Sequence record: HE978309
DNA length: 64,000 nucleotides
Strand: one strand, 5' to 3'
Source: Enterobacteria phage GEC-3S
The position numbers were made by a program, and so were the translations under genes. The notes beneath the pieces were generated by a model. The model ran no database searches. It was not told where the DNA came from and worked only from the letters and a program-made list of their open reading frames with translations. How positions within the stretch are numbered: position 1 is the stretch's first letter; each line of letters starts with the position of its first letter. Shown one piece after another: positions 11,564 to 17,416 of the stretch.

Positions 11564-12495
11564 TGTTTGATTTAAATGATTTTAACGAACAAGCCGCTAA
11601 CCTTGACTTTCAGCGATCCAACTTATTCAGCGTGGCATTTGCCACCACTCCAAGTAATAAGACACAAGCGATCCTAGAAAGTATGGGCGGTGCGGTATAT
11701 GATATTATACCAAATGCATTAAATGACTATTTCGGGATTACTCGTGGTGATTATACTGACGCATTAACAAATCTTGCTGTACAGGGTGTTAGGCGTGCTG
11801 TTGATTCATCCGGTGTCAAAAAGTATCTTTTAGGTGCAATGTCATCCCGCGTAGTTCAATCTCTTCTGGGGCAATTTGATGTTGGTACATATGCGCTTGA
11901 CTGGTTCAATATGGCATATAAGACAAGCGGTCTTCTGGTGTATGCTGTTAAGGTTCCAGAAAACAGATTGAATTATGAAATGGACCGTAACCACAATGCG
12001 CCAAACATTCGAATTACCGGACGTGATTTTGATCCGCTTGTGTTGAGCTTTAGAATGGACTCTAGCGCATCAAACTATAGAGCAATGCAGGATTGGGTTA
12101 ACTCAGTAGAAGACCCCGTCACAGGGCTTCGTGCGCTTCCTGTTGACGTTGAAGCGGATATTCAGGTCAACTTACATAACCGAATGGGAGTCCCTCACAC
12201 GATTATGATGTTTAATGGTTGTGTTCCTGTTGGTGTGAGTGCACCGGAATTAACCTATGAAAACAACAACGAAATTACAACATTCGATGTTACTTTCGCA
12301 TATCGTTCTATGCAAACTGGTGCTGTAGGAGAGCAAGCCGCGCGAGAATGGATTGAGGATAAGGCAATAAACGCAATAACAAACACTTTCGGCAATAATT
12401 TACTTGATAGTGGGTTATCTGCTGCTGGTAATGCTTTATCGCGTCTAAATGGCGTTGGTGGGCGTGTGGTGAATACTGTCACTAACTGGTTCTGA
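11563..12495 (+). CDS. 54: gp54 baseplate tail-tube initiator
   Basis: 310 aa, synteny. Confidence 0.8.
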   Translation: MFDLNDFNEQAANLDFQRSNLFSVAFATTPSNKTQAILESMGGAVYDIIPNALNDYFGITRGDYTDALTNLAVQGVRRAVDSSGVKKYLLGAMSSRVVQSLLGQFDVGTYALDWFNMAYKTSGLLVYAVKVPENRLNYEMDRNHNAPNIRITGRDFDPLVLSFRMDSSASNYRAMQDWVNSVEDPVTGLRALPVDVEADIQVNLHNRMGVPHTIMMFNGCVPVGVSAPELTYENNNEITTFDVTFAYRSMQTGAVGEQAAREWIEDKAINAITNTFGNNLLDSGLSAAGNALSRLNGVGGRVVNTVTNWF

Positions 12496-12504
12496 TAAGC
12501 GAAA

Positions 12505-12533
12505 GGCGGGGATTATCCCCGCCTTTTTATTTT
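12505..12533 (+). terminator. rho-independent terminator after gene 54
   Basis: hairpin GGCGGGGAT-TATCCCCGCC followed by TTTTTATTTT. Confidence 0.6.
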
Positions 12534-13012
12534 GCTAAATCATTGCAATATTTTAGTGCCTTAGTTTGAAATTCTGCGCTGTTAAGTTCTTCATAACGGT
12601 CATAATCACCGTTTAATGCTGCCTTTCTTGCTTCTTGCTCTATCTGCATGTCAGACATGATAATACAGCGATCCCGTGCTTTCATCTTCTCAAGTTGTTT
12701 AGACTCTTCTTTCTGCTTGCGCAATTCTTCTTGACGCTTCTTTTCTTCTTGTTCTTTCTCTTCCCGCGCTTCTTTGATTGCATCCTTGAACATCTGCGTT
12801 TGTGGTGCTAAACCAACTTTAACGCGATCCACGTCTCGACGTTCCATTTTAGAAATAAAGCATGATTCGATCTGGTCATCACTTGCATATGCTGCTTTAC
12901 ATTCACGAAGCAAGAAAACCGGATCTGATTTAGCATTCATCATAGCTTCCATGTTGGTACAACCAGTAAGCATGAATGCAGCCGCAAGACCAATCAGTTT
13001 AATCATTTTCAT
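12527..13012 (-). CDS. phage lipoprotein with coiled-coil region
   Basis: 161 aa; signal peptide ending in lipobox LTGC; Lys/Glu-rich repeat region. Confidence 0.6.
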   Translation of the reverse strand: MKMIKLIGLAAAFMLTGCTNMEAMMNAKSDPVFLLRECKAAYASDDQIESCFISKMERRDVDRVKVGLAPQTQMFKDAIKEAREEKEQEEKKRQEELRKQKEESKQLEKMKARDRCIIMSDMQIEQEARKAALNGDYDRYEELNSAEFQTKALKYCNDLAK

Positions 13013-13833
13013 TTAGTCACCTCACCGAAAATTGTAAATTGTCTACGATTCTCATCGCCGAAAGATTCTACTACGTCGTTTACCTTGACGCAAGTCCCGC
13101 GCGGTAAAATTACTTCACATTCGCAAGGGTTCCATGCAATTGATCCAACAACAAAACCTTTATGATCTTTTACGTCAATTACCCATGATACATTACAAGA
13201 ATGTTGCATCTTTCCGGTCATGGATTCATATCGATTCTCACAATAAAGGCTAGTGCTATTTGAAAGCCAGCCTCCAAAGATGATTGGTGTCATGCTGGTC
13301 GATACAAAGTTTTTAAAGGTAAACTCCTTATCTTCAATAATACGCTCTATTGTCTGAATGTCAAGATGTTGACCGCGATAAAGAGTACCGTTTAACTTTT
13401 CGGTTTTATCCATGACACAATCCATCAAATCAACAATCTCTGATATCTCATCGGTCATGTCTTCTTCCCCTAAGAGAGCACCATTTACCCATTCGTATTG
13501 TTCAGACACATAATCACAGATTGCATTATATTCTGCTGGGGTTATGTTGTTATGTTTGTAATGTTTGAATACATTATCTCCAAAGTCTTCGGAGTGTACT
13601 TCATACATCACATTAATGATTTTCTTGACAAATCCATAATCTTGTGTCTCGCGCTCAAGGAAGCGGATAACCTTCACATAATCATCAAAGTTAATCTGAT
13701 CGCTGATCATCTCAGTGATCATGTAACCATTAATCCCCTCAATGTCATATGTTTCGATGTAATTATCCATACGTTCCATCATTGATTCGCGTGATTCTTC
13801 TGAAAGACGAAAATCCTGTAATTTCTTGAACAT
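13009..13833 (-). CDS. ADP-ribosyltransferase, short Alt/Mod-like paralog
   Basis: 274 aa; R (LYRG), STS (FVSTSM) and ExE (CECEV) ART motifs aligned with the Alt C-terminus. Confidence 0.7.
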   Translation of the reverse strand: MFKKLQDFRLSEESRESMMERMDNYIETYDIEGINGYMITEMISDQINFDDYVKVIRFLERETQDYGFVKKIINVMYEVHSEDFGDNVFKHYKHNNITPAEYNAICDYVSEQYEWVNGALLGEEDMTDEISEIVDLMDCVMDKTEKLNGTLYRGQHLDIQTIERIIEDKEFTFKNFVSTSMTPIIFGGWLSNSTSLYCENRYESMTGKMQHSCNVSWVIDVKDHKGFVVGSIAWNPCECEVILPRGTCVKVNDVVESFGDENRRQFTIFGEVTK

Positions 13834-13862
13834 TTTAAACCTCCCATATAACAGAAAACGGG

Positions 13863-13904
13863 GCTAGTATAAAACTAGTCCCCGTTTGAGTCAACCATTA
13901 TTTC
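13863..13904 (-). promoter_or_regulatory. terminator-promoter cassette between alt and the alt-like gene
   Basis: minus strand TTGACT, 17-nt spacer, TATACT; 11-bp stem-loop spanning spacer and -10. Confidence 0.4.
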
Positions 13905-13911
13905 TTAAAAA

Positions 13912-15963
13912 TTACATTTTAAATTTATCTGGCATTGCGTCTACAGATACCAGATCAGCGATAAGCTGACGTAGAGTTGCCTTATCTGCTTTCTTACGTT
14001 CGGTTTTAGCTTCGCTAATGAAGCTGGAGAAAGACAGGTCAGAAGCAGGTTTAACAACACCCTCACGGATGAATGCATCACCGTCCGCGATCATCTCGCC
14101 AGATTCTTGTAATGCTGCCAGTTCACTTTTGTTCATAATATGTGCCTCAATGTAATAAGTTTCTTGTGAATCCGTAGATGCCGTAGCACGAGTTACCGTA
14201 TCAAAGGATAACACAACACCGCGAGGAAGTAAAATCTCGCATTCTTTGTAAGCAAATGCTTTGTTACCTACTGGCAATACAGGGATGTTTTCCGCGCCAG
14301 CAATGGAGAAAGCAACATTAGCGCCACCTTCACCGCGAGATCCAGCCATAGAATCTACCCCAGCAACGGCACTAGCCACGTTTGCATTCCAGCCGCCAAA
14401 AATGTTAGGTGCAAGGGAAGTGCTCACGTAGTTTTTAAAGTAAAACGCTTTTTGCTTACGTGCAGTTTCCCACATTTGAGACCGGAAGTCCATACCACGA
14501 TACAGAATAGTACCCGGATCAAGTTTAACGCCATAGTTAGAGAAGGCATTATCCAGTGCATCGCACATCTTGACCAATTCTTCTGGATCTGCGATTCCCT
14601 CAAACTCTTCCAGCTTGCGATCAGTTAGGAAGTTGTTCATATTGATGTATGCTGCATCGGCATATTCGCTCAACACAAAACCTTCCGCGCCCGGCAGATC
14701 AAGATCAATATCTGCCATCATTTCACCCATGTTGCTAGCAATTGCTTCAAACATACCGGAAGCAACATTACGAAGGGCATCGGTTTTAATCTGGGTGATA
14801 TGACTACGCAGCATTTCAGCTTTTACATCTGCTGGCATAGACTGGTCTACTCGATCCATTGCCAGGGCGGTGATCTTGTTTTCGAATACTTCCTCGCTCA
14901 TGATTTCTTTTAAGCGTTTGATTGATGCTGCGATAACTTCCGCAGACAACGGATCATATTGATCCTGAACTTTTACCAGTTCGCTTACTGCGTATTTTGC
15001 ATCGGCTTCGCTTTCAAAAATAGTACGCATGAAACCATAGCGAGTGATAATATCACTTGTCCAGTCATTCAGAGAACGGGCGGTTGAACGTTCTAAGGCT
15101 TGACGGTCAATCAGAGTATTAAACTGTTTCTTAGGTTCTGCTTCGGTGATATCTTCTTCCGGTTTAAGATTAATTTTTTCTGGATGATTCACATAGTCGC
15201 TGTTATAGGTCGCTTGAGTTTTCAGCATTTCTTCTTTAGTCAAACGAGATTTAGCCGCTACGCGTTGTTCTGCTTCCGCGTTTCGTTCTTCTTCTGACAC
15301 AAGACTAGCCGCATATGCCTCATCTTTAGTCAGAGATTCACCAGTAGCCTTAGATACCCAGCGATCACCTAAATCACTTTCTACTTTAGTGAACAAGGAT
15401 TCATCAAGTTTAATCCCTTTAATCTTATCAATCGCCATCCCGCGACGCTTGACAACAACTAAAGCGATCTTTTTGCTGGTCATTACTTCCTGCTGGAATA
15501 CTTCAAACTTCGGTGTACGACGCACCAAACGCTCTATAACGCGCTTAACCAGTTCGGTCTTACCTTTCATGCGGGATACGTTAAAACGGAACATAACAGC
15601 GTCTAATTGCGCTTTACGGGCTGTTTCCATAACCACATCAAACGCACTTGCCATAACTGCAATCGGGTTATCGCCTAGACCATTTTTAAGCTGTACAATA
15701 CGACCGCTTTTGTTCATTTCGCACAGTACAACATGTGCGGTCTTGTCGCCCATACGAATGATTTTAGGTGTTTTGTTGGTGAAGTTACAAAGACGGACAA
15801 TCACATCTTTATCGCGTGTCTGTACTGCAAAAAGCTGTTTAGGATTCTGCTTAGGCTTTAAGCACTGTACCGGAGCAATACTGCCAAAGTTTTCTTCCTC
15901 TTCCGTCAACAGCCATTTCTCGAAAGATTCAATCATTAGATCGTCGATTTCTAAGTTAAACAT
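13912..15963 (-). CDS. alt: Alt ADP-ribosyltransferase
   Basis: 683 aa (T4 Alt is 682 aa by my recollection); ART motifs ILYRG, YVSTSL, KECEIL; position after gene 54. Confidence 0.85.
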   Translation of the reverse strand: MFNLEIDDLMIESFEKWLLTEEEENFGSIAPVQCLKPKQNPKQLFAVQTRDKDVIVRLCNFTNKTPKIIRMGDKTAHVVLCEMNKSGRIVQLKNGLGDNPIAVMASAFDVVMETARKAQLDAVMFRFNVSRMKGKTELVKRVIERLVRRTPKFEVFQQEVMTSKKIALVVVKRRGMAIDKIKGIKLDESLFTKVESDLGDRWVSKATGESLTKDEAYAASLVSEEERNAEAEQRVAAKSRLTKEEMLKTQATYNSDYVNHPEKINLKPEEDITEAEPKKQFNTLIDRQALERSTARSLNDWTSDIITRYGFMRTIFESEADAKYAVSELVKVQDQYDPLSAEVIAASIKRLKEIMSEEVFENKITALAMDRVDQSMPADVKAEMLRSHITQIKTDALRNVASGMFEAIASNMGEMMADIDLDLPGAEGFVLSEYADAAYINMNNFLTDRKLEEFEGIADPEELVKMCDALDNAFSNYGVKLDPGTILYRGMDFRSQMWETARKQKAFYFKNYVSTSLAPNIFGGWNANVASAVAGVDSMAGSRGEGGANVAFSIAGAENIPVLPVGNKAFAYKECEILLPRGVVLSFDTVTRATASTDSQETYYIEAHIMNKSELAALQESGEMIADGDAFIREGVVKPASDLSFSSFISEAKTERKKADKATLRQLIADLVSVDAMPDKFKM

Positions 15964-16004
15964 TTTATATCCTCTAGTTGATAACCTATAAACCTATATT
16001 TATG

Positions 16005-16030
16005 AAAAAGGGGCTTAACGCCCCCTTTTA
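16005..16030 (-). terminator. rho-independent terminator
   Basis: hairpin GGGGC-GTTAAG-GCCCC(U) then U-run on minus strand. Confidence 0.45.
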
Positions 16031-16243
16031 TTATAATGCACCATCGAGCAATTGCTCTAAGGTGTATCCTGAATAGTCTTTTTCAATCAGGGTATATTTT
16101 CCTACTCGTTTAATACAACCGCGCATTTCCACGTATTCTGTGTAGTTGATGGTACGAGTTGTTCCATCTTCCAGTAATGCAGTACCGATTTCGTTAATGC
16201 GGTCATAAGTTACGTCGGTAATGATGATTTCGATGTTAGCCAT
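16031..16243 (-). CDS. hypothetical early protein (70 aa)
   Basis: ORF track; GGAGTATCAA RBS; promoter cassette upstream. Confidence 0.5.
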   Translation of the reverse strand: MANIEIIITDVTYDRINEIGTALLEDGTTRTINYTEYVEMRGCIKRVGKYTLIEKDYSGYTLEQLLDGAL

Positions 16244-16277
16244 TTGATACTCCTTAGTAGTTCGTTTCGGTATGGGT

Positions 16278-16318
16278 GTATTATGATATACACCCTCTGT
16301 TATGTCAACAACTTTTTA
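16278..16318 (-). promoter_or_regulatory. early promoter cassette (PeSL-like)
   Basis: minus strand TTGACA, 17 nt, CATAAT; stem-loop GGGTGTAT...ATACACCC. Confidence 0.55.
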
Positions 16319-16495
16319 GAACATTTTTGAAATTAATTTTGCTTTGATTTCGCAGAGAACACCTAAAGATTTCTCGTCACCCGCTTTTGCTGCTTCTGAT
16401 TGCATTTTTGAAATGGCTTCAATGTCAGTGCAATTATAAGCCGCTTGAACTTTAGCGATTGCGATGATTGCCGATTCGATGGTTAAGTGTTTCAT
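16316..16495 (-). CDS. hypothetical small protein (59 aa)
   Basis: sub-60-aa ORF MKHLTIESAIIAIAK...; GGAGAATCAAAC RBS; own promoter cassette. Confidence 0.45.
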   Translation of the reverse strand: MKHLTIESAIIAIAKVQAAYNCTDIEAISKMQSEAAKAGDEKSLGVLCEIKAKLISKMF

Positions 16496-16524
16496 GTTTG
16501 ATTCTCCTTTCGTTTCGGTATGTG

Positions 16525-16566
16525 TGCATTATAGGGGATCACCGATCCCCTGTCAACAACTTTTTA
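16525..16566 (-). promoter_or_regulatory. early promoter cassette (PeSL-like)
   Basis: TTGACA, spacer GGGGATCGGTGATCCCC (17-nt palindrome), TATAAT. Confidence 0.6.
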
Positions 16567-17082
16567 GTTATTTTTTAATTGCTCATCTTGCAATAGGGAA
16601 ATCACATGCTGGCGATGTTCTTCCGATTGAGGAACACCGAAAAAGTTTGTTTTGTAGAAATACTCTAATCGGTCTTCTCGTGTGCTCTCTTCCATCATGA
16701 TCGCGGGTAGTCCGAGATTTCGGAAACGTCGCTTTTCTGCTGGCGTAAAATCACTGTAATACAACATAGAATCATCATTACCCGCAATGCTAAATTCATC
16801 CTTCATAAAGGAGAATATTGCGTTTAAACGCTGTTTACCGTCCACGATTTCGATCTCATAGCGAGATCCATCATCAATCTTAGCCATTGCGATAGCACCA
16901 ACCGGAAAATCATTAATCAGGTTTTCGATAAACATACGTTTGTTTTCGGTGTCCCATACCAAAGGACGCTGATAATCTGGGTTCATGTTGATATAGCCAT
17001 CTTCTAACCACGCCTCATAAACAGAGATGACAAAGTTTTTAGTATTGGTATAGTAACGGCGTTTAGGCGTTAAACGGTTCAT
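16564..17082 (-). CDS. DUF262 (ParB/GmrS N-terminal-like) domain protein
   Basis: ORF track 16564..17118; start ATG coupled to upstream stop (TAACATG) with AGGAGA RBS; motifs PDYQRPLVWD and IVDGKQRL. Confidence 0.6.
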   Translation of the reverse strand: MNRLTPKRRYYTNTKNFVISVYEAWLEDGYINMNPDYQRPLVWDTENKRMFIENLINDFPVGAIAMAKIDDGSRYEIEIVDGKQRLNAIFSFMKDEFSIAGNDDSMLYYSDFTPAEKRRFRNLGLPAIMMEESTREDRLEYFYKTNFFGVPQSEEHRQHVISLLQDEQLKNN

Positions 17083-17083
17083 G

Positions 17084-17416
17084 TTATAGTCTCCTGAATG
17101 GATCATCACGTAAATCAATATCTTTTAAGAACTCATCCCATGAATGGCGGATATTGTTCTTAATTCTCCAGATAAGCGCAGGGATTGAACGCTCTCCCAT
17201 CTGGAAGTAGGGATCATATGATCCGTATGCCCAATATGCTACTACAATTCCACAATCAGCGCAATAGTATTCTATTTCACTTGCTGGCGACCAAATTCCA
17301 TCAATATGATCGGTGATCCTGCTTTCGATGTTATGGCTATGGCAATCAGGGCAACGGATGCAATGACCTTGTTTATCGTAATTTGACGTTAGCGAATACT
17401 TAAACAATCTCATCAT
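17084..17416 (-). CDS. zinc-ribbon protein (two CxxC pairs)
   Basis: 110 aa; CIRCPDC...CADCG. Confidence 0.5.
   Translation of the reverse strand: MMRLFKYSLTSNYDKQGHCIRCPDCHSHNIESRITDHIDGIWSPASEIEYYCADCGIVVAYWAYGSYDPYFQMGERSIPALIWRIKNNIRHSWDEFLKDIDLRDDPFRRL

Follow-up and report, generated by a model that had tools for sequence, protein, structure and literature searches.

Among the ADP-ribosyltransferases (ARTs) of bacteriophage T4, Alt is a protein of the head, is injected together with the DNA and modifies Arg265 in one alpha subunit of RNA polymerase, and ModA and ModB are small enzymes synthesized early (PMC2988021). Paralogous duplications of alt have been reported in T4-type phages: RB49ORF183c, 44RRORF188c and T4 alt.-1/alt.-2 (Nolan et al., 2006; PMC1524935). 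Phages RB49 and Phi1 also carry composite terminator/promoter cassettes named PeSLs (promoter-early stem-loops; Arbiol et al., 2010; PMC2839356; Comeau et al., 2014; PMC4122927), of which 52 were counted in Phi1 and 51 in RB49, with promoter and terminator activity demonstrated for some of them (PMC2839356). Here we analysed a stretch of 64,000 nucleotides of Enterobacteria phage GEC-3S (sequence record HE978309; the whole stretch is called the window below), in which the alt gene is followed by a PeSL-type cassette, by a gene for a short Alt-like ART and by a gene for a predicted lipoprotein (Table 1). The arrangement leads us to predict that phages of this group, the Krischviruses, split one enzyme family at one locus into a late packaged form and an early newly synthesized form, and that a promoter-terminator cassette, itself strongly conserved, brings about the split. 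Beyond this prediction the locus matters little and is not new: RefSeq already annotates its genes, the paralogy was reported in 2006, the PeSL class was described in 2010, and multiple Alt-like ARTs are common, many T4-type genomes giving two or three Alt-like matches. It does provide a clean natural system for asking what the N-terminal region of Alt contributes (packaging, for example) and whether the two catalytic domains differ in their targets.

Positions 12400-16300 show 99.5% identity to Escherichia phage Phi1 and 98-99% identity to a further 56 records of RB49-like T4-type coliphages (genus Krischvirus), and we assign the GEC-3S window to a Krischvirus (RB49/Phi1-like) genome and the locus to its alt region. 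In RefSeq, the two genes of Phi1 are phi1p184 (alt, "Alt-like RNA polymerase ADP-ribosyltransferase") and phi1p183 (ORF183, "ADP-ribosyltransferase"); both are flanked by the convergent baseplate/tail-tube genes 48 and 54, as judged from RefSeq Phi1 and Pfam matches. The initial annotation of this stretch had proposed two adjacent ART genes, and both open reading frames (ORFs) are indeed present, each scoring above the gathering cut-off of 23.4 bits for PF03496 (ADPrib_exo_Tox), with 37.3 bits for the long protein and 59.3 bits for the short one. The long protein matches phrog_802 (Alt family) end to end (E = 6e-180) and is collinear throughout with T4 Alt (27% identity over 695 amino acids, 206 bits), and genes 54 and 48 adjoin alt in GEC-3S as they do in T4. 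With full-length collinear homology and the same genomic position, we identify the 683-residue protein as the orthologue of T4 Alt. The short protein matches phrog_15144 ("ADP-ribosyltransferase", E = 3e-198).

The catalytic residues of this family are found in both proteins. In Alt they are R489 (LYRG), S514-T515-S516 (YVSTSL) and E574/E576 (ECEIL); in the short ART they are R153 (LYRG, codon at 13377-13375), S178-T179-S180 (FVSTSM, 13302-13294) and E238 with E240 (CECEV, E238-x-E240 at 13122-13114). That the short paralogue keeps R, STS and ExE had been claimed from the first inspection, and careful alignment discloses no loss: the three elements are retained in nine of nine homologues that span 99% to 23% identity. 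In both GEC-3S proteins they line up with their counterparts in T4 Alt, Tre1 and SpvB, and the ExE also with that of ModA and ModB. Both proteins are classified by these motifs as R-S-E-class, ExE-type mono-ADP-ribosyltransferases of the Alt/VIP2 family. In the R-S-E clade, ExE rather than QxE denotes an arginine acceptor, and arginine would be the acceptor expected for the two GEC-3S enzymes. A scan with NCBIfam gave no match for the short ART, Alt or the lipoprotein.

On the phrog_802 profile of 674 positions, the alignment of the short protein covers 330-602, and the protein therefore lacks both the N-terminal region of Alt, as initially proposed, and the C-terminal tail, which had not been mentioned. 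The alignment with T4 Alt, ModA and ModB that had been suggested as a check again places the short protein on the catalytic half of Alt only, with the motifs in register. The short ART thus represents the catalytic half of Alt, consisting of a helical lead-in and the ART core, without the N-terminal ~330 and the C-terminal ~85 residues. Its similarity to the Alt encoded next to it is limited to 37% identity over only 109 residues (67 bits), and its match to residues 413-593 of T4 Alt is slightly better (31% identity over 181 residues, 88 bits). Among 1.84 billion cluster representatives, 87 relatives were found at E <= 0.001, about two-thirds of them of Alt length (~560-730 residues) and only about five clusters of the short type. 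In a neighbour-joining tree of 52 catalytic cores, built from simple distances over 176 columns, 87 of 100 bootstraps recover the short family as monophyletic, and in none of 100 does it group with Krischvirus Alt. A recent tandem copy of the resident alt is ruled out by these results, as the short ART resembles T4 Alt at least as closely as the Alt of its own phage, and the tree never joins it to Krischvirus Alt.

The gene order points in the same direction. In the 20-kb metagenomic contig L006, Alt, the short ART and the lipoprotein are 46%, 44% and 38% identical to those of GEC-3S, and the genes follow in the same order, alt, short ART, lipoprotein, then convergent 54, 48 and 29. The full order from alt to convergent gene 54 is read in L006 and L007 (proteins 38-46% identical), and shorter contigs from four further lineages keep it for the parts that they cover. 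Because synteny is kept in such diverged contigs and the tree separates the short family, the pair appears to be old and not a recent tandem copy; the short ART is best described as an old, stably inherited paralogue of Alt, whether it arose by local duplication or by acquisition. Two Alt-like proteins of intermediate size, P0007 (415 residues) and P0008 (316 residues), lack most of the Alt N-terminal region and keep the Alt C-terminal tail (...KFKM and ...KFII, compared with ...DKFKM in Alt), so Alt has been truncated in more than one way.

T4 alt.-1/alt.-2 and ORF187c/ORF188c of Aeromonas phage 44RR are also extra alt-derived ORFs directly downstream of alt, and the site downstream of alt is a recurrent place of alt duplication. 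This resemblance raises the question of whether the short gene is what is left of a partial alt duplication and is now decaying, devoid of enzymatic function, as in T4, where annotation places truncated alt duplicates at the equivalent position; RB49 ORF183c is indeed listed beside the T4 duplicates by Nolan et al. (2006; PMC1524935). The T4 ORFs, however, derive from the 5' part of alt (they are annotated as an old duplication of the first part of the gene) and are broken by a stop codon, whereas the GEC-3S gene corresponds to the catalytic 3' half and is intact and constrained. ORF183 is intact in 57 of 57 Krischvirus records, with 97-100% amino acid identity, and the ratio of non-synonymous to synonymous substitution rates (dN/dS) is 0.09 against a metagenomic relative that is 83% identical, synonymous sites being saturated in more distant pairs. 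By these values the short ART is under purifying selection. Together with catalytic residues that do not vary down to 23% identity, a confidently predicted ART-like structure, and a conserved promoter and Shine-Dalgarno sequence of its own, this conservation effectively refutes decay, which we consider very improbable.

The initial annotation had placed a promoter-terminator element with an 11-bp stem between the two ART genes. The element is there, and its stem is longer and less regular than proposed. In coding-strand order the 78 nucleotides comprise the alt stop codon, an AT-rich stretch, the -35 box TTGACT (13894-13889), 17 nucleotides, the -10 box TATACT (13871-13866), the Shine-Dalgarno sequence GGGAGG (13845-13840) and the ATG of the short ART. 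A hairpin at 13887-13856 overlaps the -10 box; it has 13 pairs and one bulged A, with a folding energy of -20.9 kcal/mol (z = -2.8 relative to shuffled sequences), and reads AAACGGGG(A)CUAGU-UUUAU-ACUAGCCCCGUUU, followed by the U-run UUUUCUGUU. The cassette thus has the components by which PeSLs are defined, namely sigma-70-like -35 and -10 boxes, an overlapping G/C-rich stem-loop, an AT-rich stretch, and a Shine-Dalgarno sequence with a start codon, in an intergenic position, and by its layout we place it in the PeSL class. It shares with the RB49/Phi1 elements (Arbiol et al., 2010; Comeau et al., 2014) the promoter, the 17-nucleotide spacing, the hairpin over the -10 box, the Shine-Dalgarno/start arrangement and membership of a repeated set, and differs from them in its stem, ACGGGG-N-CTAGT with a conserved one-base bulge instead of the common GGGGATC...GATCCCC. 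A combined scan for promoters and for hairpins with a G-run and a C-run finds about 15 elements of this design on the window's minus strand, among them those at 16308, 16556, 18688, 18934, 20417, 22209, 23373, 23768, 31625, 31850, 34691 and 58453. Near-consensus sigma-70 promoters with GGGG...CCCC hairpins lying between the -35 box and the -10 box are dense ahead of small ORFs, and this pattern extends upstream of alt through the hyperplastic region.

The cassette is nearly invariant across six lineages (the window, L006:5937-6000, L009, L011, L012 and L015), in which the proteins of the relatives are 44-83% identical. TTGAC, AACGGGG, AGTTTTATACT and CCCCGTTTTCT are identical in all six, and this core is unchanged while synonymous sites of the flanking coding sequences are saturated. 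Two stem positions do vary, and they do so in a compensatory manner (C-G/U-A/A-U and U-A/C-G); the one-base bulge is kept at the same place in the stem with a variable identity (A/U/C). Standard pairs occupy 94.9% of the cells of the stem alignment, compared with 33-53% when the 3' partners are slid. In these six sequences, which are few, the pattern speaks for selection acting on promoter and hairpin alike. PeSLs have been proposed to be shuffling sites; the GEC-3S copy stays at one orthologous site and marks no recent indel, and unlike a shuffling site it behaves as a fixed regulatory element.

Upstream of alt, a G/C hairpin stem at 16025-16010, also picked up by the hairpin scan (16010-16024), is followed by a T-run (16009-16005) and directly by CATAAATA (16004-15997). 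The order of a terminator and then an octamer of the form xATAAATA is also found upstream of alt in the divergent relative L006 (AATAAATA) and in T4, there with the canonical late promoter TATAAATA, and a conserved terminator at this place was reported by Nolan et al. (2006; PMC1524935). GEC-3S alt thus has the same neighbours as T4 alt and the same association of a terminator with a late-type promoter. The GEC-3S product has an N-terminal extension of ~16 residues compared with T4 Alt (residues 1-21 correspond to 15910-15963, minus strand). Its L-L-T-E (residues 18-21) aligns with L-I-T-E of T4 Alt (residues 3-6), and the BLAST alignment of L006 Alt begins at the same point. From the T4 literature, we take these tetrapeptides to be the kind of site that is cut by the prohead protease.

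These features are best accommodated by a model in which the two ARTs reach the host by different routes. Behind a terminator and a late-type promoter, as in T4, alt would be expressed late, and Alt would be packaged in the head for injection along with the DNA. The PeSL hairpin would block read-through from alt into the short gene. A sigma-70 start about seven nucleotides past the -10 box would fall inside the 3' arm of the hairpin, so that transcripts of the cassette's own promoter would lack the 5' arm and would not self-terminate; because of this, only read-through from alt should meet the terminator. The PeSL promoter would drive immediate-early synthesis of the short ART and of the translationally coupled lipoprotein, and the short ART would serve host takeover as an enzyme that is newly synthesized and not packaged, much like T4 ModA and ModB, to which it is unrelated. 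We consider it likely that Alt is late and packaged while the short ART is early and not packaged.

Several points weigh against this reading. The promoter scan yields many sigma-70-like sites by chance (14 found, 9.9 expected), and the octamer CATAAATA matches the late promoter TATAAATA at seven of eight positions. In the neighbour-joining tree, a local duplicate that has evolved rapidly could be mistaken for an ancient lineage. The absence of the Alt N-terminal region is no proof that the short ART is excluded from the capsid, and L-S-E, at residues 10-12 of the short ART, is a tripeptide of the kind cut by the T4 prohead protease. More generally, for both proteins we infer expression, packaging and enzyme activity from sequence.

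The resemblance of L-S-E to a prohead-protease site is one reason to ask whether the short ART could be a second packaged and injected head protein, directed to the capsid by a short N-terminal targeting peptide instead of the long Alt N-terminus; the short gene moreover adjoins alt, tail and baseplate genes, and for about 44% of phage ARTs the context is suggestive of packaging in the head (PMC9503650). We nevertheless find packaging of the short ART unlikely, since it has directly upstream a sigma-70 promoter of the early type, invariant across relatives, a terminator sets it apart from the late-type alt unit, its first 30 residues are poorly conserved among homologues, and it misses the entire N-terminal region of Alt. 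L-S-E itself was set aside as a capsid-targeting-like motif, as it is not retained across the homologues and often arises by chance. A literature search gave nothing relevant on the virion proteomics of Krischviruses. Our preferred model keeps Alt as the packaged form and the short ART as the form made after injection.

The stretches between STS and ExE are unrelated in the short ART and in Alt, which makes it plausible that the two enzymes have different targets. In the short family, this region contains the motif GGW-x-SNSTSLYCENRY (residues 185-203, ~13225-13281, minus strand), which is invariant or nearly so and does not occur in Alt. Compared with T4 Alt, the short ART shares the catalytic half and is alone in having this motif and an early-type promoter. 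An AlphaFold2 model of the short protein, the only one on which fold work was done, was built on a shallow alignment and has a mean predicted local distance difference test (pLDDT) score of 81 and a predicted template modelling (pTM) score of 0.79. Its sole poorly predicted stretch is the loop of residues 187-207, in which GGW-x-SNSTSLYCENRY falls, and we propose this loop as a candidate substrate-recognition element. The fold search was needed because sequence searches of solved structures gave only marginal matches for the short ART (Tre1, SpvB and Vis, E = 0.07-0.55, with YRG, STS and ExE aligned for Tre1 and SpvB); for Alt, the sequence search gave no solved-structure match. With Foldseek against the PDB, the model of the short ART finds Vis, C3bot/C3bot2, Certhrax, CDTa and iota Ia on top (E from 1e-10 to 3e-08, probability 1.00). 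Vis, C3bot, Certhrax, iota Ia, CDTa and Tre1 share the predicted fold and align at R, STS and ExE, but they are only 12-20% identical to the short ART and are secreted bacterial toxins with eukaryotic or bacterial-competitor targets.

The short ART has no detectable similarity to T4 ModA (BLASTP E = 0.41) or ModB (E = 1.2), so that a relationship with these enzymes was ruled out; a separate ModB-like gene lies elsewhere in the genome. It resembles ModA and ModB in its small size (~200-270 residues), in its ExE motif, in its predicted sigma-70 early expression and in not being obviously packaged; being Alt-derived, it would be at most their functional analogue. Our census of ART genes covered positions 1-100 kb of Phi1 and the GEC-3S window, and it detects three ARTs in a Phi1-type genome: Alt, the short ART and one ModB-like gene. 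The last, phi1p014, is located outside the window (Phi1 NC_009821, 9096-9599) and encodes a 167-residue protein, 33% identical to ModB and 23% to ModA, in which R (LYRG) and ExE (ERE) are retained. A tblastn search of the same sequences detected no orthologue of ModA. Where T4 has Alt, ModA and ModB, the Krischvirus group thus has Alt, the short ART and one ModB-like gene. From this count of genes, with a single Mod gene in Krischviruses, it is possible that the short ART substitutes for ModA. We therefore put forward, tentatively and as a minority view among the possible roles, that the Alt-derived, early, non-packaged short ART has taken over the function of ModA, the second step of RNA polymerase alpha modification, or uses the GGW-x-SNSTSLYCENRY loop to act on a target of its own, for instance a host factor involved in defence or translation. 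If this were true, one ART lineage would have functionally replaced another, unrelated one within T4-type phages.

The gene that follows the short ART encodes a predicted lipoprotein, with the signal sequence MKMIKLIGLAAAFMLTG|C and the lipobox LTG|C, and its ATG overlaps the stop codon of the short ART (ATGA) in one transcription unit. It belongs to phrog_16112, a family of no assigned function, has no match in Pfam, NCBIfam or PADLOC, and is annotated as 'putative lipoprotein' in phage W115. In its L006 homologue, Cys38, Cys51, Cys116 and Cys156 all align to Cys, and a gene of similar size lies 3' of the short ART in five other contigs (L007, L008, L011, L012 and L015). A relationship to T4 alt.-3 was ruled out, as the two have no similarity. 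The stop/start overlap and the recurrence of a homologue (38% identical in L006) or of a similar-size gene beside the short ART could mean that the two proteins form a functional pair, as a toxin and its protector or as an exclusion or anti-defence module, and that the short ART is not a general host-takeover enzyme. Such a pair appears improbable: the signal peptide and lipobox would have the lipoprotein act outside the cytoplasm, whereas the short ART has no signal sequence; PADLOC defence models match neither protein; and stop/start overlaps recur nearby (17416/17413 and 18129/18126). A bidirectional terminator closes the ART-lipoprotein unit against gene 54. A match to sraA at 12493-12561 (minus strand), over this terminator, is below threshold in Rfam (29 bits compared with a gathering cut-off of 56, E = 0.14) and probably due to chance, and the Rfam scan of 12300-16700 returned nothing else.

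Table 1. Features of the GEC-3S alt region, with positions in the window
Feature	Position	Strand	Basis
Terminator and late-promoter-like octamer upstream of alt	15997-16029	-	Sequence read; stem scan
alt, 683 amino acids	13912-15963	-	ORF list, PHROG, Pfam, similarity to T4 Alt
PeSL-type promoter-terminator cassette, 78 nucleotides	13834-13911	-	Promoter and hairpin scans, conservation
Short Alt-like ART, 274 amino acids (Phi1/RB49 ORF183)	13009-13833	-	Pfam, PHROG, homologues, fold
Predicted lipoprotein, 161 amino acids	12527-13012	-	Signal and lipobox; phrog_16112
Bidirectional terminator, common to the ART-lipoprotein unit and convergent gene 54	12501-12527	.	Hairpin scan, 12 pairs, 7 of them G-C

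Further upstream of alt, 16564-17118 (minus strand) encodes a 184-residue protein with a DUF262/GmrSD N-terminal (ParB-like) domain and nothing else (PF03235, E = 5e-20). Among the PADLOC models, NsnA and PD-T4-2_A are matched in their N-terminal parts, and the protein looks like the phage-borne half of a defence-type nuclease. In Phi1 this protein is annotated with a shorter start, at 172 residues.

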